14,680 bases of DNA from Candidatus Heimdallarchaeota archaeon (GTDB lineage: Archaea; Asgardarchaeota; Heimdallarchaeia; Heimdallarchaeales; Kariarchaeaceae): assembly GCA_015523565.1 (NCBI GenBank), contig WAKA01000041.1:1-14680 (forward strand), written 5' to 3'. The translations under genes were made by a program, and so were the position numbers. Under the pieces are notes generated by a model that saw only the letters and a list, made by a program, of their open reading frames with translations, made no database searches and was not told the DNA's origin. This document shows positions 1-14,680 of the stretch, piece after piece. Within the stretch, counting starts at the first letter, position 1, and every line of letters begins with the position of its first letter.

Positions 1-160
1 AATATTCAAGCCCATTTTCTATTAGGAGAGAAAAAGCCAAGATGCGTCAGAAAAATTAGAATTAGGTTTCTTTTGTTGTTTAAGTTGCACTTTTGTTTAT
101 TTCAGAAAAGAAAAACAATCTTCGTTCTTAATGCTCAATCATGTATCAAAGTCCCTAGAT

Positions 161-167
161 TTTTATA
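161..167 (+). promoter_or_regulatory. Archaeal TATA box (probably leaderless transcript) for the 191..1057 gene
   Basis: TTTTATA lies 24-30 nt upstream of ATG191, the typical TATA-to-start spacing in archaea. Confidence 0.55.
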
Positions 168-190
168 GGCTTATGGGAAATTATTATTGA

Positions 191-1057
191 ATGAGCATTT
201 CTGACGAGGAATTTGAACGAAAACTTGAGGGATTGCTCCCCAAAGTTTTACATAGTTTAGGCTATATAATTACTCCAGAACAGATTGCAACGAGAGAAGA
301 TATTGAAAATTTAAGGAGACAAATGGATGAACGTTTTTTGAAAGTCTTTGAACGAATGGAAAAGAATGATGAGGAAATCAAGGGCATCAGGGAAGAGATG
401 AAGCAGCAGAATGAGGAGATCAAGAGCATCAGGGAAGAGATGAAGCAGCAGAATGAGGAGATCAAGAGCATCAGGGAAGAGATGAAGCAGCAGAATGAGG
501 AAATCAAGAGCATCAGGGAAGAGATGAAACAGCAGAATGAGGAGATCAAAAATCTCAGGGAAGAGATGAAGCATCAAAATGCGAGAATTGATAGGCTTAT
601 TGAGAGTATGAACAATGGGTTCTCCCTAGTCCACGATGAACTAGCAAAGGTTTCGAGCAAATATGGGAAAATGCGTGAAGAGGAAGCAAGAAAGCTATTG
701 GATGAGGTTTTAAAGCATTTTGGAGTCCCCTCTTATAAAGTCAAGAAAATGCAGGTAATAGACCAAGAAGGAATTGTATTTGCCAAAGGATATATTACAG
801 ATATTGATTTGTATTTGGAAAAGGACAATGAGGTTTGGGCCTTTGAATTCAAGGCAAACTGTGACAGATTTGACCTGTTTGGGTTCCATAAGATCTGTGA
901 ACTTCTTGAGAATGGATATGGCAAAAAAGTTACCAGAAAGATTCTTGCATGTTTCAGTTTTGAAGATGGCGTTGATATTGATGCGGACAGATTTGATATT
1001 GAAATTTGGAAACCAAAGGCAAGGGTTCCAGGTCTTGTTTTCCCAATCGATCTCTAA
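191..1057 (+). CDS. Coiled-coil protein with C-terminal PD-(D/E)XK nuclease-like domain (DUF3782/DUF1626-like archaeal family)
   Basis: 288-aa ORF with a short N-terminal head, an IATREDI motif (ATKxD-type beta-layer signature) and a long heptad-repeat coiled coil. It ends in a ...EEEAR...TDIDLYLEKDNEVWAFEFKAN segment matching E...D-x(n)-E-x-K of PD-(D/E)XK nucleases. Family assigned from motif recognition, not a database search. Confidence 0.8.
   Translation: MSISDEEFERKLEGLLPKVLHSLGYIITPEQIATREDIENLRRQMDERFLKVFERMEKNDEEIKGIREEMKQQNEEIKSIREEMKQQNEEIKSIREEMKQQNEEIKSIREEMKQQNEEIKNLREEMKHQNARIDRLIESMNNGFSLVHDELAKVSSKYGKMREEEARKLLDEVLKHFGVPSYKVKKMQVIDQEGIVFAKGYITDIDLYLEKDNEVWAFEFKANCDRFDLFGFHKICELLENGYGKKVTRKILACFSFEDGVDIDADRFDIEIWKPKARVPGLVFPIDL
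371..580 (+). repeat. In-frame tandem repeat, 5 x 42 bp (14 aa: EEIK(S/G/N)(I/L)REEMK(Q/H)QN)
   Basis: Units start at 371, 413, 455, 497 and 539, consensus GAGGAGATCAAGAGCATCAGGGAAGAGATGAAGCAGCAGAAT. Copies 2 and 3 are identical, copies 1 and 4 differ by 2 nt, and copy 5 is the most diverged. Confidence 0.97.
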
Positions 1058-1113
1058 CAATCATTTCATAAGAATTATTTTCCGACTTATTTGGGCTCAG
1101 TATTGATTATAAT

Positions 1114-2025
1114 TCAAGCATTATGATAATTTTGATCAGGAGATTGTTTATTTTTTGTGAGAAAATGCATGGGGTTTTCTATAAAAAACAACGAAAAGGT
1201 AATGATCAATCGAGGTTCCTTATTAAGAATTCGATGTGGCATCCCTTCCAAAGCAATTAAGGTAGAGTTGGGAAGTAATGCATCAAGTTTTACAGAATCT
1301 TCAAAGGGAATTACCTTATCATCAGTTCCTGCAAAAATTAGAGTAGGGGTATCAATGACGCTTGGATCAATGCAGTAAGAGGCAATTGTTTCCTCGATGA
1401 TTTTCTTTTGGATTTCAAGTGGTGCATTGGTCAATTGTGAAATAAATTTTTTATAAGTCGGGATTTCTTCTTCCGATGCAAAGTATGGCAAAGTCTTTTC
1501 AAATAACTTGGCGACTGCTCGAATCAATTTTTTGGGAGAAAGTTTGGTAAGACCTTTTAACCATAAAGGTACTGAGAATTTTATGGTTGGAGAAATAAGT
1601 ACCAAAGAATCGACATGCTCAGGGAAAAGTTTTGTAAATGTCAATGAGACAGCAGAAGAGAGAGAACTTGCAACAAGGTTTATCTTGAAATCAGAACCAA
1701 GAAACTGGGACAGAGCACAGTGAATATCTGTAGCAAGGTCTTGAATGGACCAAGACAAGTCTAGAGGGGAATCTGAATCCCCATGACCACGCAAATCAAT
1801 TGCAAACATGTTGAAATGATTTGAATAATGATCAAATGCATATTTATAGTCTTCACTGGACCCAAACCATCCATGAAGGAAAACCACATTTGGAAGGCTG
1901 GGATTGATGACTTCTGTTCGTTTCAAGGAGAGAAGAAAAAAGTCATTCTCTGCAATTTTCTCATCAACTTCGCAGTGAAAATCTGACCTATGATAAACTG
2001 GAACAAAGCTTTCTACAACTGACAT
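1114..2025 (-). CDS. Alpha/beta fold hydrolase (Abhydrolase_1-like)
   Basis: Motifs VFLHGW (oxyanion region), AIDLRGHGDS, nucleophile elbow LVASSLSS (S121), PTLIFAGTDDKVIP (D236) and GMPH (H264). A possible SD (GAGGT, 2037-2033) lies upstream. Confidence 0.9.
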   Translation of the reverse strand: MSVVESFVPVYHRSDFHCEVDEKIAENDFFLLSLKRTEVINPSLPNVVFLHGWFGSSEDYKYAFDHYSNHFNMFAIDLRGHGDSDSPLDLSWSIQDLATDIHCALSQFLGSDFKINLVASSLSSAVSLTFTKLFPEHVDSLVLISPTIKFSVPLWLKGLTKLSPKKLIRAVAKLFEKTLPYFASEEEIPTYKKFISQLTNAPLEIQKKIIEETIASYCIDPSVIDTPTLIFAGTDDKVIPFEDSVKLDALLPNSTLIALEGMPHRILNKEPRLIITFSLFFIENPMHFLTKNKQSPDQNYHNA

Positions 2026-2124
2026 ATAGATGACCTCGATGCATTGTGCGTCGATATAGATGCAATAGATCCCATCAAGGAAATACTTCCTTGAGAAAGT
2101 TCTATCTATTCTTTACTAGTGTCA

Positions 2125-2140
2125 TTTTATATTTATAAAA
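2125..2140. promoter_or_regulatory. Palindromic, possibly bidirectional TATA element between the divergent hydrolase and XPD genes
   Basis: TTTTATA-TT-TATAAAA has perfect 7-bp arms and is centred at about 2132, almost exactly midway between the start codons at 2025 (-) and 2238 (+). Confidence 0.45.
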
Positions 2141-2237
2141 CATTGCTAATAAGGAAAGAATAAATTTTCCATGACCTGATATTTCAGGCAATCAAGACTT
2201 TTTTAAGAGAGGGATAATTGGTTTTCTTGTAAAAGAA

Positions 2238-4178
2238 ATGAGCATGACCAAAGAAAAATGGAAGGAATTCTTCCCGTACAAGCCAAGACCTGCACAGGAA
2301 AAGATCATGCAACCTATGCAGGATGCAATATTTGATGGAAAACATTGCTTAGTGGAAGCTGCAAATGGAACTGGAAAAACAATTGCCGCATTGGCTGCGG
2401 CAATCCCTGTAGCCAAACAATTGGACAAGGTAATTGTATATCTTGCAAGAACACATTCCCAAATGGATAGAGTGATCGAGGAATTGCAGGAGATTAGTAA
2501 CCATTCAAAGGAATATGTTTCAGGGTTGACATTGAGAGGCAGAAACTCAATGTGCCTAAATGAATTGGTTTTGGAATATGCAAAAAGTGCCAGATCTGCC
2601 AGTGAGATGTGTACACAATTAAAATCCCTGAAAAAATGCCAATATTACAAAAACATGAGTGAGGATAAACGGATAAAACCAATAATGCATGAACTGAAAA
2701 AAATGCCTGCCACGGCAGAAGTGATTTTTGAAATGGCAGACGCCGCCCAGATCTGCCCTGCGGAAACTGCGAGAAAATTGCTTGCAAGTGTAGATGTAAT
2801 ATCCTGCAGTTATCTGTACATATTTGATCCAAAAATAAACGCATCATTTTTTGATCAGGTTGGGGTAGATTTGGATGATATCATACTCATTATTGATGAA
2901 TGCCATAACTTGCCAGACACTGCTATAGAAATTGGATCTGATGAGATCACATCATTTTCCTTCAGCAGGGCGATTCGTGAGGCAAGGGAAGAGGGAAGAA
3001 GGGATGCAATCCCATTTTTTGAAGCTTGCCAAGATTATTTTTTTGATCAGGCAAACAAATGGCAAATAGGACAGGAGTTGCAGGTTGACGGTTCAAAAAT
3101 CCTTGAAGAGCTTGAATTGAAATGTGACATTGAATTGGATGATGAGTTTTTTGAGGATCTCGTTTCTTTGGGGTTTAAGATTAGGACAAAGCTATTAAGG
3201 AAAGGCAAGGAACCAAGATCAAGTATAGGAAGAATTGGGGAGTTTTTTTCTGCATGGTATGATTCCATTGGCAGAGTAGATTATATCCATTCAATGGAGG
3301 TACGCACAATTGAAGGGAATAGGCAAAGCAGGTATGCAGTTTTAAGATTATCCAGTTTGAATCCAAGAAAAATCTTGGACCCAATACTTACAAAGGTTTT
3401 TTCATCAGTACACTTGACAGGTACTTTAGGAGACCCAGATGCTTACAAAATGTTAACAGGTCTTTCTGATCTTCCGACAGAGACAATGGTTCTTCCCTCA
3501 CCTTATAAGAGTTTCAATATCAAGGCATATTATACGGGAAAGCTTAGTACCCTATACAATCATCGTAATCCAGATACCTTCAAAAAAATGGTTGAATTAA
3601 TCATTGCAGTGGCTGACAACACTCCAGGAAATATTGGAGTGTTTGCTCCAAGTTATCAGATTGTAAAGGATCTTATGGACAACGGTCTCTCAAAATACAT
3701 GATAAAGCCAATATTCCAAGTACCCGCAGATTCAACGTCTGAAGAAAATGACAGAATCATTCGGAGGTTCAAGAAAGAGGCAAGCAAGGGGGGTGGAATT
3801 TTGCTGTCAGTACTTGGGGGAAGATCATCTGAAGGAACTGATTTTCCAGGGGACTTGATGAATTCTGTTGTTATCATTGGCATACCCTATGCTCCCCCAA
3901 ATCCGAGAATTAACGCAAAAATAGAATTTCTGGAGTCAAAATTTGAAGGCTGGGGGAGAACACTGGGGTATATTATTCCAGCGATAAACAAGGCAAGCCA
4001 AGCAGCAGGAAGGGCAGTAAGGTCTCTTGATGACAAGGCATTCATACTCTTTGTTGATTTTCGCTATGGTTCCTATAAGGTAAAAAGATTGCTTCCCCAT
4101 TGGATAAGACAGAATTTGAAAAAAATTGAGCCAAAGCCTGAGTTTATTAAAAAAGAAGTGATTGGATTTTTCAGGTAA
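2238..4178 (+). CDS. xpd: ATP-dependent 5'-3' DNA helicase, XPD/Rad3/DinG family with 4Fe-4S cluster
   Basis: Q motif FPYKPRPAQ, Walker A EAANGTGKT, motif Ia RTHSQ, four Fe-S cysteines (SMCLN, EMCTQ, KKCQYY, QICP), Walker B DECH, motif III TGTL, motif V SEGTDFPG, motif VI QAAGRAVR. The start may be ATG2238 or ATG2244. Confidence 0.95.
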   Translation: MSMTKEKWKEFFPYKPRPAQEKIMQPMQDAIFDGKHCLVEAANGTGKTIAALAAAIPVAKQLDKVIVYLARTHSQMDRVIEELQEISNHSKEYVSGLTLRGRNSMCLNELVLEYAKSARSASEMCTQLKSLKKCQYYKNMSEDKRIKPIMHELKKMPATAEVIFEMADAAQICPAETARKLLASVDVISCSYLYIFDPKINASFFDQVGVDLDDIILIIDECHNLPDTAIEIGSDEITSFSFSRAIREAREEGRRDAIPFFEACQDYFFDQANKWQIGQELQVDGSKILEELELKCDIELDDEFFEDLVSLGFKIRTKLLRKGKEPRSSIGRIGEFFSAWYDSIGRVDYIHSMEVRTIEGNRQSRYAVLRLSSLNPRKILDPILTKVFSSVHLTGTLGDPDAYKMLTGLSDLPTETMVLPSPYKSFNIKAYYTGKLSTLYNHRNPDTFKKMVELIIAVADNTPGNIGVFAPSYQIVKDLMDNGLSKYMIKPIFQVPADSTSEENDRIIRRFKKEASKGGGILLSVLGGRSSEGTDFPGDLMNSVVIIGIPYAPPNPRINAKIEFLESKFEGWGRTLGYIIPAINKASQAAGRAVRSLDDKAFILFVDFRYGSYKVKRLLPHWIRQNLKKIEPKPEFIKKEVIGFFR

Positions 4179-4198
4179 CCCAAAAATTTTTTTTAGGG
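4179..4198 (+). terminator. Possible archaeal oligo-U terminator after xpd
   Basis: CCCAAAAATTTTTTTTAGGG immediately follows the stop codon: an 8-T run (4187-4194) inside a weak inverted repeat. Confidence 0.4.
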
Positions 4199-4217
4199 GA
4201 AAAGAAATTATTGTATA

Positions 4218-4805
4218 TTGACCAATGATAAGCGGAGAAATGAAATCCTCCAACTGATCAACAGGTTTTTCAAGGATTTTGATGAGTTATTCAATTTTGC
4301 GGATCAATTGGATGAGCCTGACAAAATAATAAAGCTGATCAAAAATGCGACAGATGACAAGTTAGCTATTCAGCTAGTCTTTAGGTTGGCATATCTGGAT
4401 GAGTCACATTTGGCCAAATTAATAATGGAAACAGATGATGAAATAATCAAACAATTCAGTATATTTATTTTGAAGGATGAGAATGCACTCAAAAGAGTCG
4501 CTGAAGCTGATACGTCAATTTGGACTGCATTGGGTGCAGTATCAAAAATTTCAGATCAAAATTTGCTTTTTGAATTGGCAAACAATACCAACGCTTTTTC
4601 AAGCGTCAGATGGGAAGCATTAAGGCGAATAGATAAAACGGAGCTTCTAGTAAAATTGCTGGACAATCCAATTGATGATATTTGGGTTAAAGCAATTCTC
4701 ACAAAAATCAAAGACATGGATACATTGCTAATGCTACGATTGACTTTAGCAGATCGTTATCAATCTGAATTGATCAAAAAAATAAAAAGAATCAGTGAAA
4801 ATTAG
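4218..4805 (+). CDS. Hypothetical alpha-helical (HEAT-like) repeat protein
   Basis: 195-aa ORF with TTG start and about 26-aa periodic units such as DQNLLFELANNTNAFSSVRWEALRRI and DENALKRVAEADTSIWTALGAVSKIS. Its 3' end overlaps the convergent regulator gene by 14 bp. Confidence 0.7.
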   Translation: MTNDKRRNEILQLINRFFKDFDELFNFADQLDEPDKIIKLIKNATDDKLAIQLVFRLAYLDESHLAKLIMETDDEIIKQFSIFILKDENALKRVAEADTSIWTALGAVSKISDQNLLFELANNTNAFSSVRWEALRRIDKTELLVKLLDNPIDDIWVKAILTKIKDMDTLLMLRLTLADRYQSELIKKIKRISEN

Positions 4806-6339
4806 TGACGGAAGAATAATATTGCTTTTCATTATAAACTCTCTTTTTGAGCAGGATGTCCAATAGATTTTCAATTTCGTCATAATCAGGATCAATATAT
4901 TCTTTGTTTGCAATCTTTTTCTTTTTGATCAACTGGTTTTTTGTCAAAATATTCAACATGTTTCGGACAGTCTTTCTGTTTATGCCTGTTTCTTCAGATA
5001 TTGTGCTGATATTCCATTCTATGTTTTCATAGGAAACTAAGAATTCCAAAAATGGAATCGCATGTTTTGATCTAAGATTGAGTTCAACCATTTTAAGACC
5101 ATAATCGAATTGATCAGCATACTCAGATGCAATATAAACGATATAACGTCCAACTTTCTTCTTCTCGACCCATCCATACTCTTCCAATATTTGAAGATGC
5201 CATAAAAGATTACCCATACCCATACCCACAGCTTTCTTGATTTCACGGAGGTGTGCACCAGAAGCTTCCAGATATTCTAAATAATCTATAATTGCCTTTC
5301 GTGCAGGATTTACAAGAAGTTGACCTTCAGATATCTGTCGGTTTTGGACATGATAGGCAGAACCGATAATGAAAATTCCAAATTTGAGGATTTGATCGAA
5401 TACCCATTGAAGAAATGAAATAATTTTTCTGAAGAACAGGGCAATTAAGGCAACAAAAACCAAAAGCATTGGAAGCAGGGAATTGCTAAAATTTGAATCA
5501 TTTGTATTTGGAAATTGCGCAGAGTTTGAGTTTGTGGAATTTGAAGTAATCATTGTGTTGTTTGATACGGCTGTAGAAATGTTATTTGAGGATATTGAAT
5601 TTTCAATTTTAATGTTAAGGAACATTTTTACTGTTTTCTGTATCAGGATGTCAATTTTGGAAAGCAGATCGGGCAGGGCATTGATATGAAGATTTCCATG
5701 ACCATTTTCCACAGGGGAAACTAAGTCAAACATAAATGCAATTGAATAAAGCAGAGAGCTATTTCTTTCCAAAATAATTGGTTCACCACCAGAGATTTCT
5801 TTTTGAACCTCCGATTCATTGACAGAAGAAATAGTTCCGAGAATGTTTGTATTTTGTAATTGTGTGACAATTCCCACTTTGCCCAAATAGGATGCAGATA
5901 TATCTGATTCATTCAATCTAAGAGTGAATGTCCATTCAGTGTTTTCCTCCCCCAGTTCTTTCAGATAATTTCCCACACCAAGTTTTGTAATAAAGTTGTT
6001 GCTGAATTCGTCAATACGGGAAGAGAATAGGACAATGGATTTTAGATCGTCAGTATTTATGAATTGTTCAATTTCATCTTTCAAAGCACTTTCCAAGTTT
6101 TCTGATGAAGTTTCAACAAAAATTATGTCAAATGAGTTCAATGAAGGTGGCGATTTTGAGTCACTTGGGATTGGAGTTACAGATACTTGATCATATTTAC
6201 TTAACAAGTCAAGAAATGTACTTTTACCCTCTTCATTTGAATAGATGACACCAATATTGATTTGGTGGCTTGTTGCCAATCCAAACATGGGATTCAGAAG
6301 CATCAACAATGATAAGAAAATGAAAGGTAACTGTTTCAT
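4792..6339 (-). CDS. Membrane-anchored transcriptional regulator: signal peptide, extracellular domain, Ser/Asn stalk, TM helix, tandem winged-HTH (COG3398/ArsR-like)
   Basis: Start reassigned from 6489 to ATG6339 (MKQLPFIFLSLLMLLNPMFGLA is a signal peptide, with a TATA about 45 nt upstream), giving 515 aa. TM LLPMLLVFVALIALFF followed by RK at about 5478-5425. wHTH1 is NPARKAIIDYL...AHLREIKKAVGMGMGNLLWHLQILEEYGWVEKKKVGRY. wHTH2 is WNISTISEETGINRKTVRNMLNILTKNQLIKKK. Confidence 0.85.
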   Translation of the reverse strand: MKQLPFIFLSLLMLLNPMFGLATSHQINIGVIYSNEEGKSTFLDLLSKYDQVSVTPIPSDSKSPPSLNSFDIIFVETSSENLESALKDEIEQFINTDDLKSIVLFSSRIDEFSNNFITKLGVGNYLKELGEENTEWTFTLRLNESDISASYLGKVGIVTQLQNTNILGTISSVNESEVQKEISGGEPIILERNSSLLYSIAFMFDLVSPVENGHGNLHINALPDLLSKIDILIQKTVKMFLNIKIENSISSNNISTAVSNNTMITSNSTNSNSAQFPNTNDSNFSNSLLPMLLVFVALIALFFRKIISFLQWVFDQILKFGIFIIGSAYHVQNRQISEGQLLVNPARKAIIDYLEYLEASGAHLREIKKAVGMGMGNLLWHLQILEEYGWVEKKKVGRYIVYIASEYADQFDYGLKMVELNLRSKHAIPFLEFLVSYENIEWNISTISEETGINRKTVRNMLNILTKNQLIKKKKIANKEYIDPDYDEIENLLDILLKKRVYNEKQYYSSVTNFH

Positions 6340-6379
6340 GCCACATCTGTCATCTTTTTGTTTAATTACAATTACAATG

Positions 6380-6389
6380 TTATATATAA
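6380..6389 (-). promoter_or_regulatory. TATA box for the membrane-anchored regulator gene
   Basis: TTATATATAA (self-palindromic) lies 41-50 nt upstream of ATG6339. Confidence 0.5.
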
Positions 6390-6443
6390 TAAGACCATTG
6401 GAACAGTTTTGCCCACATAAGAAAAAGGAAAAAAAAGTTACTA

Positions 6444-6463
6444 AAAAATAATGAGTTATTTTT
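6444..6463. promoter_or_regulatory. Candidate operator palindrome AAAAATAA-tgag-TTATTTTT
   Basis: Perfect 8-bp inverted repeat with a 4-nt spacer, centred at 6453/6454, about 68-69 bp from each of the two divergent TATA boxes. Confidence 0.45.
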
Positions 6464-6510
6464 CGCACGAACAACGGAATGATTTTCACTATGAGTCGAC
6501 AATGTGATGT

Positions 6511-6525
6511 AAAAAGTTAAATATA
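6511..6525 (+). promoter_or_regulatory. BRE + TATA promoter of the S8 protease gene (probably leaderless)
   Basis: Purine-rich AAAAAG directly followed by TTAAATATA, 21-29 nt upstream of ATG6546. Confidence 0.65.
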
Positions 6526-6545
6526 TCTATGTTTTAATTGTTACA

Positions 6546-9500
6546 ATGAACACCAAATCACTAAGAAATGGTAGTTTTATTAACAGGACAGGAGTGTTCA
6601 TTTTACTTTTTTCAATACTAGTGATTTCATCATTCACTCCTGCCTCTGTTATAGCGAATCAAAGGATCAGTTCACAAAGCATTCAACAAAATGTAGCAAC
6701 TGACCTTACTCAGAATCAAAATCAAGAATTGCAAACCACAAAAGGAAGCGCATTTGATTTGATTCCTGAGGACAGCAGATATGATCTGCTCAGAAAACAT
6801 TTGGAAAAAGAAGGTGCACCAATAAATGCAAAGGTTATTTCTCCATTCCTTCTGAATCTTCAAGACAGGGATCTAAATGTTCAGAAGGATGGAACCATGA
6901 AATTGGTTGTTTCATTGGACAATAGAAACAAATACGCAGACGTATATGGGTTGGCTTCCCGTTTTGGCTTTAGTGTGGAAGAAGAAATTCCCAGATTGAA
7001 TGCATTTGTTTTCAAAGGGAAAATTGACGCATTCAACAATTTCCTTCTAAGCAAGGGGTCTCGTTTAGGAGTAGAATACGTTGAACCTGTTGTCTATTAT
7101 CAGTTAGACAATACTGAAAAAAGCCATCCACCTCATCTTATGGGTACACCAAATGACCCCATGTGGAATGATCAATACGGTCCACAAATCATCAGGGCAG
7201 ATAAGGCATGGGGACAGTTCCAAACACCACCTTCGGAACCAGTCATTGTTGCAGTTATTGATACAGGTGTGGATTACAACCATCCAGATCTTCAAAATAT
7301 CTATTTGCCTGGCGGATATGATTGGTACAATGATGATAATGATCCAATGGATGATCATGACCATGGAACCCATGTTGCAGGAATTATTGCTGCAGAGATC
7401 AACAACAGCATAGGTATTGCTGGTGTTGCTGGTTTGGGTTCAGGTTATGTGAAAGTCATGGCAGAAAAATTCCTAAGCTCATGGGGAAGTGGATCAGACA
7501 CTGATGCCGCAAATGCCATCATTCATGCAGTAGATTTTGGAGCAGATATTTTAAGCAATTCATGGGGTGGCGGTCCTTCTGATCTTATTGCAGAAGCGAT
7601 GGCATATGCAGAAGATAATGGAGTAATTGTCATAGCTGCGGCGGGCAATGGTTTTGGTCAAGATGCAGATTTCAACTATCCTGCGGCATTGCCATCAGTT
7701 ATTTCTGTTTCCTCAACAGATGAAAATGACCAATTGTCATACTTTAGCTCATATGGCTATACTGTTGATGTCGCAGCCCCTGGTTCAAGTATTCTTTCAA
7801 CTGTCAGGAATGGAGACTATGAGTTTTTCTCAGGAACATCCATGGCCACACCACACGTATCAGCTACAGCTGCATTGATGTTGCTTAGACAACCTGACTT
7901 GACACCTTTTGAAGTTAGAACCCTCTTGCACGACACTTCTGTTGACCTTGGCGATGAGGGATTTGATGTGAAATTCGGTTATGGTCGTATCGATGTCCTT
8001 AATGCAACAACAGCCGCGGTAAGACCCAACACAGATTTGAGGGCAACAATTTATGTGCCTCAACAACCCACAATTACAAATTCAATAATCAGAGTTACAA
8101 TTGGCCTGTTCAACTTTGGTACATCCACCCAAGATTTGAGTTACAGCATTCTACAAAATGGAAAAGTTGTTGCTTCAGGAACAGAATCAAATATGGCGGG
8201 TGGAACATATCTTAAATATGAACATGAAATGATTGTTGTCAATCCACAGGATGTTGTTCTGCAAGCAATAATCACCCCTGTTGCAGGTGAAACAAACATT
8301 GCAAACAACAATGCCACTCAAGTCCTCTCTTTTGGCAAGCAAACATATTCCATGAAACCAATGCAGTTTGAGTGGGATGATGCAAGGAATGGTGGAAGAA
8401 ATCTCGGATTGGTTGGGGATGATATAGCAGTTGATGTCCCATTGCCTTTCGCCTTTCCGTTCTTTGGAGATTTCAATTTTGACACTGCATTTGCCAGCAC
8501 AAATGGGTACATCTCATTTGTAGACCCAAGTGGATGGAGATATTATCCCGCCATATTTCCAGATGACTATAATCCATTTGTAATAGCACCATTCTGGACA
8601 GACATGATCATGTTTGACTTTGGCGATGGAGGAAACACGACAAATGATGTTCCAGAATTTTGGGTCAAAGAAAGAAATGACTCTGTGATTTTGCAATGGA
8701 CAAATGCAAAGCTTTACTTTGATCCTACTGCAAGAATTACATTCCAAGCGGTATTGTATAAAGATGGAGACATTCAATTCAATTACCTAAATGCAGAAAC
8801 GGAATTCGTTGCAATTGGTGTAAACAAGGGTCTTAGGTCAATGGACTATACCACATATTGGTCACCTTTGGATGGTCCGATTTCTCTGACAAACATGTCA
8901 TTATTGTTTACATCAAAGGAAATGAGTGTAGCCAATGAACTTGGTGTTTCTCTCTATACCTCATTGGATATGACACTTCCAAACAGCAATAATACAATTG
9001 AATTTGGCATTCTCAATTATGGCACAGCAGATGCTACAAATGTGGCATATGATATGGCAATCAATGGAACAAGTGTGATGAATGGAAGTACAGATGTAGA
9101 TGCAGGATTTGGTGAGCCGTTTTCGTATGAGTGGATGCCTACAGTAGAAGGTCATTATGTTTTCAACATTTCTGTTGCCCCATACTTGAATGAAACGGAT
9201 TTACAGAACAACTTCATTGTTTTCGAAGTTGATGTGGTTTCTTCTAACCTCAATGTACCATTTGGAACTCCGATGTATTACCAATTTGATTCAGAGCTTT
9301 TTGGAGGGCTAGAAGAGTGGCCTTTACTAGAAATGCACGTTGAAGAAACTGAAGATCCATTATTTGCAGATCTATGGCTGACATACATAGACCTGTTTAC
9401 TGGAGAAGTATTCATTGAATCCTCATTCCGCTTCAATGTTTTGACCTTTGAACTTGAAGGTGGATGGGGTCAAATGCCATTCATCCTACCAACATTTGCA

Positions 9501-11096
9501 GATGTAGGATACAGCAATGAGTTTGGTGAAATTGTTTCAGACACAACATACGATTTCCAAGGAACTTCATTAACAGGTTGGCTTCTAGAAGATAGTTGGG
9601 GAACCTCTGTAGTTTATGACCAAGAAACAGGTGCAATGCTATCTTACAGGGTACCGTTCTATAATGGAAATGGAACATCTCCAGAAACCGTTGGAGTCAC
9701 CATTATTGCGGCACATGGAGTTCTTGCTACACCATCTGTCAATCAATTCTTAGATGTTTTTGCAATAGATGGACCAGTCAATGCAGAAACACAGATCAAT
9801 GCATTTGTCATGAACACAGGAAGCAGTACAGTTTCTGGTACAACATTGCAATTGAAAGTTGATGGGCAAGATGTTTTCAGTATGGATATTTCTTCATTGG
9901 ACCCTACAAGCTATACCGTGGTATCGGTGAATTATACTGTATCTGAAGGAGTTCATCTTGCAGAAGGATCATTGTCAGCAGCCACTTCAGAAACATATCT
10001 TGAAGACAATGCAGATACAGATACCTTCATTGGAATGGAATTCATTGCTGTTTTCCAAGATGACTATCCCTTCTTCTCATATATGCTTGAAGATGTCATT
10101 ACTTATGGACTAGGAATGGGTGTTAAGTATTTCGGATCTAACGATATTGGAAACGTCAATATAAGTGCATATAAACGAGTGATTATTGCGTCATCCCAAA
10201 CCGCTTCATTCCAAAATAAAGTTTCATCCAATACCCAATGGTTTGAAAACTACGCTGAAAATGGAGGAATTCTTGAAATCCATGCAGCTTCAGATCAAGG
10301 ATATGGAGCAGGACCAGGTTACACATCTCTTCCAGGAGGTGTGAGTGTTGTCAATGCACAAGATGGATATAACCAGATCTCAATTATGGATCCAACTTCA
10401 GACCTGTTTACAACACCCAATTTGATTTCTGATGCCATGTTAAGCAATTGGTATTGGTCTGCATATGGATATTTGTCAATTAATGACCCATTGACAAAAG
10501 TTTATGCAAAAACCACAGACGTCAGTAGTGTTGCACCAGTGATTGCTGCTAAGGCACAAGGAGATGGTTTTATCATATATACCACAATGCCTGTAGAAGC
10601 ATGGTGGGGCAGTTATAGTTTCTTGGAAAATCTCGTCCAATTTGTGCCTAATGATGTCCCAACATCAGGCAATCCACCATCAATTCAAGGAAATGAAAAT
10701 GTGATCATGTATTATGGTCAGTGGGAGACACTCATATACGTAATTTCGAGTGACTTCTATGAAACATATTCAATTACAATTGATGGAGACAAGACAGTCT
10801 ATAACTGGAATGAAAAAGAGAAAACCATCGTTATTTCCACAGAAAATTGGACTGTCGGAGAGCACTCTGTGAAGATTGATGCAACAGATCTTCTGGGTCA
10901 GACTACATCAATGGAAACAACTGTTAAGGTTCTGCCACAGGGTGGAGTAACAGTCACTAAAACAGTAAGTGCCACAACGACACCCACAAATACAAGTGTG
11001 TCAAGTAGTGAAAGCAAAAGTCCATTTAACATGTGGGCAGTTGTATTTGGTCTTGTCTTTATAGCAATCATGCCAATCATCAGAAAGAAGAAATAG
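6546..11096 (+). CDS. Secreted, cell-surface-anchored multidomain S8 (thermitase-like subtilisin) serine protease
   Basis: Signal peptide, I9-like propeptide, then catalytic D239 (VAVIDTG), H273 (HGTHVAG), oxyanion N368 (AAAGN) and S432 (GTSMATPH). These are followed by CARDB-like repeats (N-x-G...E...NN), a NIDO-like domain (LPFAFPFFG...STNGYISF...IAPFWTD), a GATase-like domain, an Ig-like domain, a Thr/Ser linker and a C-terminal SPF-TM-RKKK tail. Confidence 0.95.
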   Translation: MNTKSLRNGSFINRTGVFILLFSILVISSFTPASVIANQRISSQSIQQNVATDLTQNQNQELQTTKGSAFDLIPEDSRYDLLRKHLEKEGAPINAKVISPFLLNLQDRDLNVQKDGTMKLVVSLDNRNKYADVYGLASRFGFSVEEEIPRLNAFVFKGKIDAFNNFLLSKGSRLGVEYVEPVVYYQLDNTEKSHPPHLMGTPNDPMWNDQYGPQIIRADKAWGQFQTPPSEPVIVAVIDTGVDYNHPDLQNIYLPGGYDWYNDDNDPMDDHDHGTHVAGIIAAEINNSIGIAGVAGLGSGYVKVMAEKFLSSWGSGSDTDAANAIIHAVDFGADILSNSWGGGPSDLIAEAMAYAEDNGVIVIAAAGNGFGQDADFNYPAALPSVISVSSTDENDQLSYFSSYGYTVDVAAPGSSILSTVRNGDYEFFSGTSMATPHVSATAALMLLRQPDLTPFEVRTLLHDTSVDLGDEGFDVKFGYGRIDVLNATTAAVRPNTDLRATIYVPQQPTITNSIIRVTIGLFNFGTSTQDLSYSILQNGKVVASGTESNMAGGTYLKYEHEMIVVNPQDVVLQAIITPVAGETNIANNNATQVLSFGKQTYSMKPMQFEWDDARNGGRNLGLVGDDIAVDVPLPFAFPFFGDFNFDTAFASTNGYISFVDPSGWRYYPAIFPDDYNPFVIAPFWTDMIMFDFGDGGNTTNDVPEFWVKERNDSVILQWTNAKLYFDPTARITFQAVLYKDGDIQFNYLNAETEFVAIGVNKGLRSMDYTTYWSPLDGPISLTNMSLLFTSKEMSVANELGVSLYTSLDMTLPNSNNTIEFGILNYGTADATNVAYDMAINGTSVMNGSTDVDAGFGEPFSYEWMPTVEGHYVFNISVAPYLNETDLQNNFIVFEVDVVSSNLNVPFGTPMYYQFDSELFGGLEEWPLLEMHVEETEDPLFADLWLTYIDLFTGEVFIESSFRFNVLTFELEGGWGQMPFILPTFADVGYSNEFGEIVSDTTYDFQGTSLTGWLLEDSWGTSVVYDQETGAMLSYRVPFYNGNGTSPETVGVTIIAAHGVLATPSVNQFLDVFAIDGPVNAETQINAFVMNTGSSTVSGTTLQLKVDGQDVFSMDISSLDPTSYTVVSVNYTVSEGVHLAEGSLSAATSETYLEDNADTDTFIGMEFIAVFQDDYPFFSYMLEDVITYGLGMGVKYFGSNDIGNVNISAYKRVIIASSQTASFQNKVSSNTQWFENYAENGGILEIHAASDQGYGAGPGYTSLPGGVSVVNAQDGYNQISIMDPTSDLFTTPNLISDAMLSNWYWSAYGYLSINDPLTKVYAKTTDVSSVAPVIAAKAQGDGFIIYTTMPVEAWWGSYSFLENLVQFVPNDVPTSGNPPSIQGNENVIMYYGQWETLIYVISSDFYETYSITIDGDKTVYNWNEKEKTIVISTENWTVGEHSVKIDATDLLGQTTSMETTVKVLPQGGVTVTKTVSATTTPTNTSVSSSESKSPFNMWAVVFGLVFIAIMPIIRKKK

Positions 11097-11135
11097 ACAA
11101 AACCCTAAATAATATGGAATTCATTTTTTAACTGT

Positions 11136-11741
11136 TTGAATTATACGGAATTTATTCAAAATCTCAAGACATACATCTCAAACAACCATTTTATACATTC
11201 ACAGAAACCAATAGCATCAGTATTAGTTCCCATTTTTGAAAAAAATGATGAGCCATGGATTTTATTGACAAAAAGGTCTACAAAACTGGAGAAACATTCA
11301 GGACAGGTTTCATTTCCAGGGGGAAAAGTTGACATCACGGATAGGGACGAGATAGATACTGCATTGAGGGAAACAAAGGAGGAACTTAATATTTCAAAAG
11401 GACAAATTGAAATCATAGGGAGGTGGCATGATTTCTGGACACCATATTATAGAGATGTTGCCACAATAATCGGGGAAGTGAAAAATTTAGATGGCATGAC
11501 CCCTTCAGAATCAGAAATTGAAAAGATAATCAGCTTGCCCGTATCTTCTTTTGCAGATCCAAGCATTCATAGGGTTGAGGAAAGATATCATAATGGCATA
11601 ACCTATACAGTCCATTATTTTGAAATTAACGGGGACGTGATTTGGGGAGCCACTGGTGGTGTGATTTTCTTTCTTTTAAGAGACTTAGGGATAATAAAAT
11701 ATGGAAAACAATATTCAGGTCGTAGAAGTGGTCTTACTTAG
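11136..11741 (+). CDS. Nudix hydrolase, CoA pyrophosphatase subfamily (NudL/PCD1/NUDT7-like)
   Basis: ASVLVP, the NuCoA motif LLTKRSTKLEKHSGQVSFPGG, the Nudix box GKVDITDRDEIDTALRETKEELNI, and C-terminal IWGATG. TTG start, with a TATA-like TAAATAATA at 11106-11114. Confidence 0.9.
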   Translation: MNYTEFIQNLKTYISNNHFIHSQKPIASVLVPIFEKNDEPWILLTKRSTKLEKHSGQVSFPGGKVDITDRDEIDTALRETKEELNISKGQIEIIGRWHDFWTPYYRDVATIIGEVKNLDGMTPSESEIEKIISLPVSSFADPSIHRVEERYHNGITYTVHYFEINGDVIWGATGGVIFFLLRDLGIIKYGKQYSGRRSGLT

Positions 11742-12120
11742 TCTTTTCATCCCGAATTTCCTTGAGAACCTTAAGACCATCCATTGCGAGAGGAAAGCCG
11801 ATAAACATTGCCAAATGTAAGAAAAGCTCTGCCAATTGATCATATCCATAACCTTGATTTAGCGCTGCAATCAGGTGTGATTTAAGTTGCGGTTTTAGTC
11901 CTAGGCAGGTTAGAGAAGTAATTGCTACAAGTTCTTTTTCCTTAAGAGACAATCCTTTTCTTGGATATACCGACCCATAGGGGATTTCGATGACGAATTT
12001 TGCAAAAGTTGGATCCAAATTTGTGAGGGCAGATTTTATCTTTTCCCAGTTATGCTTATACAATTCATATCCAATTGTATCTGCTTCAGTTTCCCTGTTG
12101 TCTGGAATGGGCGAATTCAC
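11734..12120 (-). CDS. Carboxymuconolactone decarboxylase (CMD/AhpD-like, PcaC-type) family protein
   Basis: YGSVYPRKGLSLKEKELVAITSL...PQLKSHLIAALNQG...ELFLHLAMFIGFP is the typical CMD pattern. There is no CxxC. GTG start, with an 8-bp convergent overlap with the Nudix gene. Confidence 0.9.
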   Translation of the reverse strand: MNSPIPDNRETEADTIGYELYKHNWEKIKSALTNLDPTFAKFVIEIPYGSVYPRKGLSLKEKELVAITSLTCLGLKPQLKSHLIAALNQGYGYDQLAELFLHLAMFIGFPLAMDGLKVLKEIRDEKTK

Positions 12121-12224
12121 ACGATTTTATCATCCATTGTCCATTTATCAATTCCGTTACATATCAATTTTCATCTAAACATTCACTGGCTATGGTGACT
12201 TATTTTGGAGAACTTATTTGTAGA

Positions 12225-12231
12225 TTTATAA
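12225..12231 (+). promoter_or_regulatory. TATA box for the DinB-family gene
   Basis: TTTATAA lies 24-30 nt upstream of ATG12255, supporting that start over 12075. Confidence 0.55.
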
Positions 12232-12254
12232 GCATTGCATTGAAATATGATTCA

Positions 12255-12746
12255 ATGATTGAGCCCATTGAAAAAAACAAGCTCCATAATAAACTTGTGA
12301 CAACTGGAACAGCCCTTCATTCCTTGTTTTGGGGGAAAAAACCGCAACAGGTGAATATTAAGTCGTCAGACCCAAACATAAAATATTCTGCCTTGGAATA
12401 TTTAATGATCTTGAGATATGCATCCGATTTATTTACTGGAAGGGTGGAGAGGATGTTAAAGGATGAAACAGTTCCAAGCACCCACGATTTTGACCTAGAC
12501 AAGTTTTTGGCAATGGAAGACATTGATGATCAAAGCTTGAAAGCAAATATTGAAGAATTCATGGAATCTCGTGCAAAATTGCTTAGACTTCTGAACCCAC
12601 TTGCAGATGAGGATTGGGATAAATACAAAATCAACCATGAGAAATATGGAGAGCTCACATTAAGGCAACTGTTAACTCTCTTGGCAAATTATGAAGAAGA
12701 ATGGGTAAATAACATTCGTACAATTCTCAAGGAACACAATATGTAA
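12255..12746 (+). CDS. DinB/YfiT-like (DinB_2) four-helix-bundle protein lacking the metal-binding histidines
   Basis: The pattern KYSALEYLMIL...RVERMLKDETVP...FMESRAKLLRLLNPLADEDW...HEKYGELTLRQLL matches DinB_2. The start is moved to ATG12255 (163 aa) because the longer ORF would overlap the divergent CMD gene and its promoter. Confidence 0.8.
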   Translation: MIEPIEKNKLHNKLVTTGTALHSLFWGKKPQQVNIKSSDPNIKYSALEYLMILRYASDLFTGRVERMLKDETVPSTHDFDLDKFLAMEDIDDQSLKANIEEFMESRAKLLRLLNPLADEDWDKYKINHEKYGELTLRQLLTLLANYEEEWVNNIRTILKEHNM

Positions 12747-12748
12747 CC

Positions 12749-14197
12749 CTAATCAACATACTGCTCATAGAAGATTATATTAGATGCAATTGTGAGCAAA
12801 TCTTCAGGAATCCAGTTATTGAGTTCTAGCCATAATGTTCCATTGGCAAGATCAGAGAGCAATTCCTCTATAGTTTCACTTTTTGTCATGACTGAAGGGG
12901 GATCAACACCTGTGCGTCTGTCTGGGGCTCCGAAAATATGGCTTATCTCATGTTGGAACAAGTTATCTGTCCATGCATTGGTAAGCCTGACGCCACTTGC
13001 CTTTAAACTGCCACCTGCATTTGCGGCGATGTTGAATCCACCATTGACAGTACCAATGACCATTCCATAGTTTGACATCGTTTTATTTGTATTGATGAGC
13101 AAAATGTCGGCACCCATGTTATTGCGAGACCTGCCTTGGATGTGCCACCATGTGTTTTGAGGAAGATTGAGCATGGAACCCACCTTTGATTTTGCAAAAT
13201 CAAAAAAATCGGGAAGTGAAGTGGATCCAGAATAATCGGTTTCAATGGTTAAAGCAACTTTGAAGGTCATATTGAACCATTTCTCAAAGTAAATGTTGAC
13301 AATTTTAAGGATTTCAGAAACTGGAGGAAAAGTATCTTCCCAATGATCATTCATTACAGTAACTAAAATGACCTTTTTGCGATTAAGAAGCATGAAATAA
13401 AATGTCAGTTCAGATTGTGAGGAATTGAATACCAGAGTGACATTTATCATACTTGACAAATCTGCAAGATTTAGTGATATTTCGCTATTATTGATCTTGT
13501 AAGTCCTTTTGTTTATGAATAAAGTTCCATTGAAACCTGAAGAGGCATTTATGTTGAAAAGATAAGAAGACGCCGCATTGACTTGGGTTTCAAGCAATCC
13601 GTAATTAAAGGAATTATTAGTAACGACTGTAACTTTTCCATGCATAGCTGAAGAGATGGATCCAGAGGCATTATGAAGTATCCAAGTGGAGGAGGAAAAC
13701 ATGTTGACTGCAGAATACTTTTCGACATGAATAATCTGGTCAAGAATCATTGTTTTTTCAAAAGTCTGGTTGTCAACAGAAAAGGTATAGTTTAAGTTGT
13801 GAAGTTTATATGCTCCATCAGAAAGAGCAAAAAACATGTCAGAGGTAGTTTGCCAAAAGCCAGGCAAGAAATCGAATTGCAGTTTGTAATAACCGGGAGA
13901 ATAAGATTGATTGAGGAAAATATATTGATGGGAAATTCTTTCATTCTTTGAAGCTTCCAACTTAACGCCAACAAGGGTTGCATTGTAAACAGAGACATTT
14001 AGGGTGACAATCATAGTGAGATTCTCCCCTCTGAAGAGAGTATCATTAAAATTGACGTTTTCTATTTCCAATGTCTTTTCTTTTGGAAATTGGGGAGCTT
14101 GCTTTGGGATACGGTAAAGATACAAGGCAACCCCCAGAATTGAAACAAGAATGATTAAGGAAATTGAAACGACAGACATTAACTGTTTTGAGTTCAT
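12749..14197 (-). CDS. Membrane-anchored zinc metalloprotease, metzincin clan (reprolysin/M12-like), with N-terminal beta-rich extracellular domains
   Basis: N-terminal signal-anchor VVSISLIILVSILGVALYLY, zinc motif HEISHIFGAPD (HExxHxxGxxD, aa 416-426, nt 12952-12920), Met-turn PSVM (M437) and 17 N-x-S/T sequons. A TATA-like TTTAAG lies at 14226-14221. Confidence 0.8.
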   Translation of the reverse strand: MNSKQLMSVVSISLIILVSILGVALYLYRIPKQAPQFPKEKTLEIENVNFNDTLFRGENLTMIVTLNVSVYNATLVGVKLEASKNERISHQYIFLNQSYSPGYYKLQFDFLPGFWQTTSDMFFALSDGAYKLHNLNYTFSVDNQTFEKTMILDQIIHVEKYSAVNMFSSSTWILHNASGSISSAMHGKVTVVTNNSFNYGLLETQVNAASSYLFNINASSGFNGTLFINKRTYKINNSEISLNLADLSSMINVTLVFNSSQSELTFYFMLLNRKKVILVTVMNDHWEDTFPPVSEILKIVNIYFEKWFNMTFKVALTIETDYSGSTSLPDFFDFAKSKVGSMLNLPQNTWWHIQGRSRNNMGADILLINTNKTMSNYGMVIGTVNGGFNIAANAGGSLKASGVRLTNAWTDNLFQHEISHIFGAPDRRTGVDPPSVMTKSETIEELLSDLANGTLWLELNNWIPEDLLTIASNIIFYEQYVD

Positions 14198-14238
14198 TCA
14201 ACGGATATTGGAATTATTCACTTAAATTATTAGTCGCA

Positions 14239-14598
14239 TTAGTTTGAAATTTCGTCAGGATCAATTTCAATCAATTTCTTGAAGACGTCAACAAATGCAG
14301 GTTTTGGATAGGCGCCGACAAAGCGACCGACAGGTTTTCCATTTTTGAAAGCCCAGAATGTTGGAATACTAGTTGCACCATATTTCATTGCCGTTTGTGG
14401 ATTCTCATCAACATTCAGTTTGCCAACCCATACTTTCCCCTTGTATTCCTCAGCCAGTTCTTCCAATATTGGAGCAACCATCCTGCAAGGTCCACACCAT
14501 GCCGCCCAAAAGTCAACCAAAATAATGGGTGCTTTTTGGATCATTTCATCAAAGTTCTCATCAGTGAGTTTTATTGGTTTTCCTGTTTCTTCAAGCAT
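14239..14598 (-). CDS. trxA: Thioredoxin
   Basis: LVDFWAAWCGPCRMVAPILEELA, KLNVDEN and cis-Pro motif SIPT. Confidence 0.97.
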   Translation of the reverse strand: MLEETGKPIKLTDENFDEMIQKAPIILVDFWAAWCGPCRMVAPILEELAEEYKGKVWVGKLNVDENPQTAMKYGATSIPTFWAFKNGKPVGRFVGAYPKPAFVDVFKKLIEIDPDEISN

Positions 14599-14604
14599 AA
14601 TCCT

Positions 14605-14610
14605 TCACCT
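14605..14610 (-). promoter_or_regulatory. Archaeal-type Shine-Dalgarno site of thioredoxin
   Basis: Minus strand reads AGGTGA-AGGATT-ATG. A TATA-like TTATTAATAA lies at 14649-14658. Confidence 0.6.
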
Positions 14611-14680
14611 TCGTTTGAAGATGTGCTATTATGTAGCAACAACCTTACTTATTAATAATTGTTATAGTACAGTATATAAT

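Follow-up and report, generated by a model that had tools for sequence, protein, structure and literature searches.

The window analysed here, i.e. the whole 14,680-nt stretch (positions 1–14,680) of contig WAKA01000041.1 in assembly GCA_015523565.1 from a Candidatus Heimdallarchaeota archaeon, carries on its minus strand a gene (4792–6339, stop codon included) for a 515-aa protein that is probably a type-I single-pass transmembrane transcription regulator, i.e. a membrane-bound one-component system. The protein consists, in this order, of a predicted Sec-type signal peptide, an ectodomain with a non-catalytic amidotransferase-like fold, a disordered stalk, one transmembrane (TM) helix, a juxtamembrane helix, and two winged helix-turn-helix (wHTH) domains. 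This layout is conserved in a family of relatives, in which the outer domain has been exchanged many times and evolves rapidly. The source genome bin is 3.57 Mb in size and 90% complete. The relatives come from metagenome-assembled genomes of Heimdallarchaeota, with source names including Candidatus Kariarchaeaceae, Hodarchaeales, and Promethearchaeota, and public records name the family members only 'hypothetical' or 'predicted transcriptional regulator'. No publication describing this Asgard receptor family was found in the literature, and the 2014 archaeal dark-matter paper is silent on it.

The maximal open reading frame (ORF) spans positions 4792–6489, encodes 565 aa, and begins with a GTG codon, and the 515-aa product is counted from its Met51 (ATG at 6339). 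An earlier reading made from the sequence alone (hereafter, the sequence-only reading) had already moved the start from the ORF caller's 6489 to Met51 and proposed that a signal peptide lies hidden behind it; both proposals were borne out. Met51 is preferred because the aligned Met with its hydrophobic leader forms the start of all relatives, the 515-aa form is the exact version in the public protein collection, and the 50-codon extension is not conserved (open frames of 503–539 aa in genomes of the same genus versus 574 here) and contains a TATA-like run (6381–6392) located ~47 nt upstream of the ATG. The predicted signal peptide (residues 1–23; 6271–6339) comprises Lys2, a hydrophobic core at residues 3–16 (Kyte-Doolittle peak of 1.96 at residues 4–22), and the segment Asn-Pro-Met-Phe-Gly-Leu-Ala, after which cleavage is predicted before Thr, with Gly at −3 and Ala at −1. 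Leaders of this n/h/c type are present in nearly all full-length relatives.

The full protein was modelled by AlphaFold2 (AF2) on a 33-sequence alignment, with a mean predicted local distance difference test (pLDDT) score of 82. Within the ectodomain (residues 24–251; 5587–6270), a well-folded domain spans residues 27–251, and the ectodomain modelled alone reached a pLDDT of 94.2 and a predicted template modelling score of 0.88. Foldseek assigned this model to the class-I glutamine amidotransferase (GATase)-like alpha/beta/alpha fold with E-values of ~1e-6, in agreement with an independent all-against-all structural search. In VIA-align, ThuA-like, GATase1-like, and GH42 chains were matched at Z-scores of 13.6–14.1 over 163–172 residues, and Z rose to as much as 16.2 once the C-terminal helix (residues 223–251) was included. 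The structural matches comprise ThuA-like proteins, a Planctomyces GATase1-like protein, the C-terminal region of GH42 galactosidase, the N-terminal domains of Agd3 and IFT52, and OST48, with overall Z-scores of 12–16, 160–213 aligned residues, and sequence identities of 7–15%. No transcription regulator with a GATase-like ectodomain is among the structural matches listed.

The mature ectodomain contains no cysteine; it thus lacks the Cys-His-Glu triad and is not an amidotransferase. Neither this ectodomain nor those of three orthologues matched any Pfam family even at E ≤ 10, which leaves them outside the ThuA, DUF4350, and GldG-type families, and a profile search of solved structures by sequence yielded no matches at E ≤ 0.01. 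An ESM Atlas search with the whole protein was uninformative, with best scores of 0.77–0.78. The alpha/beta/alpha fold and the absence of a catalytic Cys are shared with other non-catalytic class-I GATase-like domains (ThuA-like proteins, the GH42 C-terminal region, the Agd3 CBM87 domain, the IFT52/GldG 'GIFT' domain, and OST48), from which the ectodomain differs in its low identity and its lack of Pfam membership. One of them, the N-terminal domain of Agd3, is amidotransferase-like, lacks catalytic residues, and has been defined as carbohydrate-binding module CBM87 (PMC7229062). It aligned with the ectodomain model over 171 residues (Z 13.9, root mean square deviation 3.4 Å).

The ectodomain is followed by an Asn/Ser/Thr-rich stalk (residues 252–287; 5479–5586) with a near-invariant Pro277, and pLDDT values fall below 50 at residues 253–284. 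Eight N-x-S/T sequons precede the TM helix, three in the fold (residues 143, 174, and 193) and five in the stalk (253, 260, 267, 280, and 283), and a single one follows it (443), exactly as counted in the sequence-only reading, where this imbalance was offered as internal support for the topology. That use of the sequons did not survive shuffling. Composition-preserving shuffles of the ectodomain are expected to contain 6.2 sequons, and over the 33 representatives the ectodomains carry 218 sequons versus 152 after shuffling and the cytoplasmic parts 59 versus 40.5. Since both parts exceed their shuffled versions by an equal factor (~1.4-fold), the imbalance reflects N/S/T-rich composition, and sequon enrichment was rejected as topology evidence. 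One individual site stands apart: the sequon at N193 (N193-S-S; 5755–5763), which comes after a conserved P-x-P motif in the ectodomain, recurs in 30 of the 33 representatives, where its middle residue varies and +2 is Ser or Thr. At the conserved cytoplasmic Asn N344, Ser/Thr occupies +2 in only 17 of the 33. Glycosylation of the ectodomain and stalk, which had been stated outright, is therefore plausible in view of this conserved sequon and of the STT3/AglB encoded in the genome, whereas the general excess of sequons is compositional.

The TM helix (residues 288–304; 5428–5478) has a Kyte-Doolittle peak of 2.45, is conserved across the 33 representatives, is helical in the AF2 model, and is trailed by Arg-Lys, as had been noted from the sequence. 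The region that begins with this Arg-Lys pair (residues 305–328; 5356–5427) is a conserved juxtamembrane helix; its first half contains a near-invariant Trp312, a conserved acid-base pair lies mid-segment, and a Gly-rich hydrophobic stretch of 12 residues follows in the alignment. The earlier description of this helix as amphipathic thus fits its first half, but not its second. Residues 288–328 are modelled by AF2 as one continuous, straight helix of 41 residues with no hairpin. The family mean of Lys plus Arg is 0.27 in the 15 residues before the TM helix versus 1.55 in the six residues after it. The leaders, this positive-inside bias, and the continuous helix agree with the single-pass N-out/C-in arrangement previously proposed, which is a prediction here as well.

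The cytoplasmic part contains a tandem wHTH pair, as had also been suggested: Pfam/NCBIfam matches lie at residues 341–409 and 441–481, and AF2 models two H-b-H-H-b-b units with pLDDT values of 90–97. The first domain (wHTH1; residues 345–404; 5128–5307; pLDDT 94–97) is the most conserved part of the protein. Its recognition helix and wing hold the most conserved columns of the family, the invariant ones being G376, L378, W380, L382, and L385. It is ArsR-like in fold and recognition helix, but not a member of the ArsR/SmtB family by score, since the bit scores for NCBIfam HTH_metalloreg (37, E 2.2e-9), Pfam HTH_20 (24), and HTH_5 (19.5) lie below the cut-offs of 55, 27, and 22, respectively. 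HTH_HVO_0163_N (PF24266) scores 29.5 bits here versus a cut-off of 31. Among 87 wider relatives, matches to HTH_20, HTH_5, and HTH_HVO_0163_N were obtained in 74, 64, and 63, respectively, the last with a best E-value of 1.6e-21. The second domain (wHTH2; residues 427–484; 4888–5061) is TrmB/MarR-like from its AF2 secondary structure and its match to Pfam TrmB (PF01978; residues 441–481), which at 27.9 bits exceeds the gathering score of 25.6. The C-terminal sugar-binding effector domain of TrmB proper was not found by Pfam/NCBIfam or AF2; wHTH2 is followed only by a helix (residues 486–501) and a tail (together 4795–4884). In the fold search with the full-length model, the match list was filled by the ectodomain, so the wHTH fold received no separate confirmation there. 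A homodimer prediction for residues 285–515 scored 0.00, below the mark, a result that counts neither for nor against dimerisation.

A soluble paralogue of 253 aa encoded in the same genome carries the tandem wHTH module N-terminally (E 4e-36) and has an acidic C-terminal tail (G000:C214:4683-5120; L007 1201–1962, minus strand). Its gene adjoins that of a multi-pass membrane protein whose long coiled-coil region is chemoreceptor-like. The cytoplasmic module (residues 330–500) is of the same type as soluble tandem-wHTH archaeal regulators (COG3398-like; HTH_HVO_0163_N and TrmB N-terminal domain), but in contrast to these regulators it is preceded in the same polypeptide by the signal peptide, ectodomain, TM helix, and juxtamembrane helix.

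An exhaustive HMMER search collected 315 representatives at E ≤ 1e-3. About 33 of them are full-length relatives (E below 1e-30), and most of the others match only residues ~290–485. A survey of such relatives for N-terminal ectodomains had been recommended in the sequence-only reading, and among the best 150 representatives 117 carry at least 80 residues before the TM helix. BLAST sorts the N-terminal parts of these 117, all joined to the same C-terminal module, into at least 22 clusters. In profile-profile comparisons, one other cluster retains a diverged version of the same ectodomain (alignment column 26 to 486), and in another the wHTH module is all that is shared. Of 301 sampled genomes of the phylum, 158 contain a match at E ≤ 1e-5. 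Matches reaching the ectodomain columns were obtained mostly in the taxonomic family of the window (8 of 10 other genomes) and in one sister family (3 of 3), with a few partial ones within the same class; elsewhere in the sample, only the part from the TM helix through the juxtamembrane helix to the wHTH pair matches, in frames of 400–550 aa. The identities to three orthologues of the same genus are 33%, 26%, and undetectable for the ectodomain versus 58, 55, and 46%, respectively, for the cytoplasmic part, and neighbouring genes are ~40–80% identical across the same-genus loci where they are found. The ectodomain thus evolves much faster than the cytoplasmic part. A receptor family would be expected to combine, as here, a conserved output module with outer domains that are interchangeable and evolve fast. 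One member, P0013 (807 aa; relatives in JGI metagenomes), has ~300 extra residues before the GATase-like ectodomain, a hint that further outer domains can be added to the same receptor in series.

We propose that, after removal of the signal peptide, the ectodomain would be held outside the cell on the flexible, probably glycosylated Asn/Ser stalk. The single TM helix would span the membrane and continue as the juxtamembrane helix at or in the inner leaflet, and the ArsR-like and TrmB/MarR-like winged helices would bind DNA in the cytoplasm while tethered. An external ligand bound by the ectodomain, perhaps a glycan by analogy with other non-catalytic proteins sharing this fold, may change oligomerisation or helix register, and this change, relayed via the TM-juxtamembrane helix, may switch DNA binding by the wHTH pair, as has been proposed for TfoS of Vibrio.

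In Vibrio cholerae TfoS, a putative signal sequence is followed by a large periplasmic domain, a single TM helix, and, at the cytoplasmic C-terminus, an HTH; the protein senses chitin oligosaccharides, and its switching by ligand-driven dimerisation or conformational change has been proposed (PMC3903286). It is thus a one-component regulator with the same order of leader, extracytoplasmic sensor, TM helix, and cytoplasmic HTH as the protein described here, but it is bacterial, has an AraC-type HTH and an unrelated periplasmic domain, and shows no sequence relationship; the conserved juxtamembrane helix is found in the archaeal family alone. ToxR, CadC, and TcpP are likewise single-pass, membrane-bound one-component regulators with a cytoplasmic winged helix and an outside sensor. 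They differ in having a single DNA-binding domain of the OmpR type at the N-terminus, inside, the sensor at the C-terminus, outside (periplasmic in the ToxR/CadC-like type), and no signal peptide. The polarity of the Heimdallarchaeota protein is therefore opposite to that of ToxR/CadC, as the sequence-only reading had stated, yet this orientation is not as unusual as implied, since TfoS shares it. Among archaeal regulators, ArnR differs in carrying its HTH at the N-terminus, in the cytoplasm, and its TM helices at the C-terminus, and it is not known to have a large ectodomain. ArnR and ArnR1 resemble the present protein in being archaeal, membrane-bound, HTH-containing one-component regulators (PMC6396743). 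A survey of transmembrane transcription regulators (TTRs) across Bacteria and Archaea found them to be widespread among Archaea, where it counted 1,384 TTRs, mostly single-pass, from 404 species; its Table 1 gives ArnR of Sulfolobus acidocaldarius as the only characterised archaeal TTR (PMC10269533). The two features by which TTRs were recognised there, at least one predicted TM region (here residues 288–304) plus a DNA-binding domain predicted in the same polypeptide, are both present. The family is best regarded as an uncharacterised, Asgard-wide variant of TTRs whose sensor domain is of a novel type and whose juxtamembrane element is conserved.

Several points weigh against a signalling receptor with cytoplasmic winged helices. 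All HTH matches of this protein except that to TrmB fall below curated cut-offs, and no operator was identified upstream of the receptor gene. Many GATase-like proteins with unrelated functions match the ectodomain fold equally well, which leaves a glycan ligand as an analogy only, with CBM87 as precedent rather than evidence. The second hydrophobic segment, after the TM helix, reaches TM-like Kyte-Doolittle values in ~44 of the 150 wider relatives. The insertion energies that speak against a second membrane crossing are estimates, summed on a biological-hydrophobicity scale without position weighting; for the best 19-mer of the juxtamembrane segment, they amount to +7.1 kcal/mol here and +4.5 to +11.5 across the 33 representatives (median, +6.5; none below +1.5), compared with ~+0.7 for the true TM helix.

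Among the alternatives, proteolytic release in the manner of Notch or SREBP, in which ligand binding or the shedding of the ectodomain by a surface protease is followed by an intramembrane cleavage that frees the wHTH pair as a soluble regulator, is unlikely. It draws on the type-I topology, which by prediction is that of a substrate of regulated intramembrane proteolysis, on the long disordered stalk with its near-invariant Pro ~10 residues before the TM helix, on the divergently oriented gene for a 1516-aa secreted subtilase and a reprolysin-like metallopeptidase gene 6 kb away, and on M50 site-2 protease and rhomboid homologues encoded in the genome. However, the presence of M50 and rhomboid homologues is uninformative because each of the 14 control genomes has both as well, the orthologues in loci L004 and L005 have no subtilase next to them, and the Pro within this TM helix lacks conservation. 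Moreover, there is no nucleus and hence no need for release, and those prokaryotic members of this class that have been characterised reportedly function while in the membrane (PMC10269533). The likeness to Notch drawn in the sequence-only reading is thus confined to the predicted type-I topology, with nothing in support of proteolytic release and a protease neighbourhood that is not conserved. Its specific form, in which a surface protease (the divergent subtilase or the nearby membrane metzincin) sheds the ectodomain of Heimdall-group receptors and intramembrane cleavage then frees the tandem wHTH, is a long shot; if true, it would represent a prokaryotic forerunner of receptor-to-gene signalling by regulated proteolysis.

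It is also unlikely that the protein does not signal at all and instead binds glycans or serves as a scaffold at the cell surface, with its cytoplasmic wHTH pair as a constitutive membrane anchor for DNA or another partner and no ligand-dependent switching. Non-catalytic GATase-like domains are often oligomerisation or scaffold modules, and the GH42 C-terminal region, the IFT52 N-terminal domain, and OST48 are among the matches; neither a ligand pocket nor an operator was identified here. Against this stands the sensor pattern described above, i.e. many unrelated outer domains swapped onto one inner module together with fast outer evolution.

A two-pass hairpin or re-entrant arrangement, in which residues 306–328 re-cross the membrane and place the winged helices outside as protein- or ligand-binding rather than DNA-binding domains, is very improbable: the borderline Kyte-Doolittle value of 1.53 for residues 306–324, the second hydrophobic peak ~22 residues after the first in those ~44 relatives, and the conserved, Gly-rich, hydrophobic second half of the helix would favour it, but the insertion energy is never favourable, a conserved acid-base pair sits mid-segment, AF2 models a straight helix, wHTH1 shows recognition-helix and wing conservation of the ArsR type, and a soluble, cytoplasmic paralogue carries the same tandem module. 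The insertion energies, the acid-base pair, the AF2 helix, and the soluble paralogue taken together make single-pass N-out/C-in topology with cytoplasmic winged helices the most likely prediction. A second true TM helix, which the sequence-only reading had named as fatal to its proposal, is accordingly improbable for this protein on insertion energy and AF2 modelling, although some distant relatives show TM-like hydrophobicity there.

Upstream of the single-pass receptor gene, a putative promoter (6381–6414, minus strand) consists of an 18-nt block (6397–6414) followed by the adjoining TATA-like run. The block is conserved in the orthologous locus L003 and in part also in L004. Allowing up to two mismatches, it occurs nine times in the genome (eight besides its own site) versus zero times for a reversed control. 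None of the eight other near-matches has a TATA or gene-start context, and no regulon can therefore be claimed. An AT-rich palindrome with 8-nt arms at 6444–6463, also upstream of the gene, was considered as an operator and rejected, its sequence not being conserved in L003.

The subtilase gene (6546–11096, plus strand) is divergent from the receptor gene and encodes a Peptidase_S8 domain, two CARDB domains, and a NIDO-like stretch; the pairing of the two genes is kept in L003. A domain shared between the receptor ectodomain and the C-terminal region of the subtilase was considered and rejected for lack of sequence support (BLASTP E 0.15–0.22; hhalign probability 0.4%). The 482-aa product of 12749–14197 (minus strand) shows reprolysin-like (M12B) metallopeptidase matches in its C-terminal half and is 39–48% identical in the same neighbourhood of L003 and L004. 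On the other side, a 195-aa ORF (4218–4805, plus strand) converges on the receptor gene, the last 14 nt of which it overlaps. This ORF has no Pfam or NCBIfam match and is 57–58% identical in L003 and L004; a resemblance to small HEAT-repeat proteins (language-model look-alikes at 0.92–0.94) is a lead only. The most stable neighbour of the receptor gene is that for an XPD/Rad3-type helicase (2238–4178, plus strand; DEAD_2, HBB, and Helicase_C_2), which is likewise convergent with it and 59–71% identical in three related loci.

Membrane-bound one-component regulators are almost unstudied in Archaea. With the family described here, the Asgard archaea, among them the closest group to eukaryotes, would have a modular repertoire of receptor-like regulators. 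The family offers a tractable handle on what these organisms sense at the cell surface, a defined DNA-binding module for finding regulons, and a non-catalytic amidotransferase-like domain as a candidate extracellular sensor.

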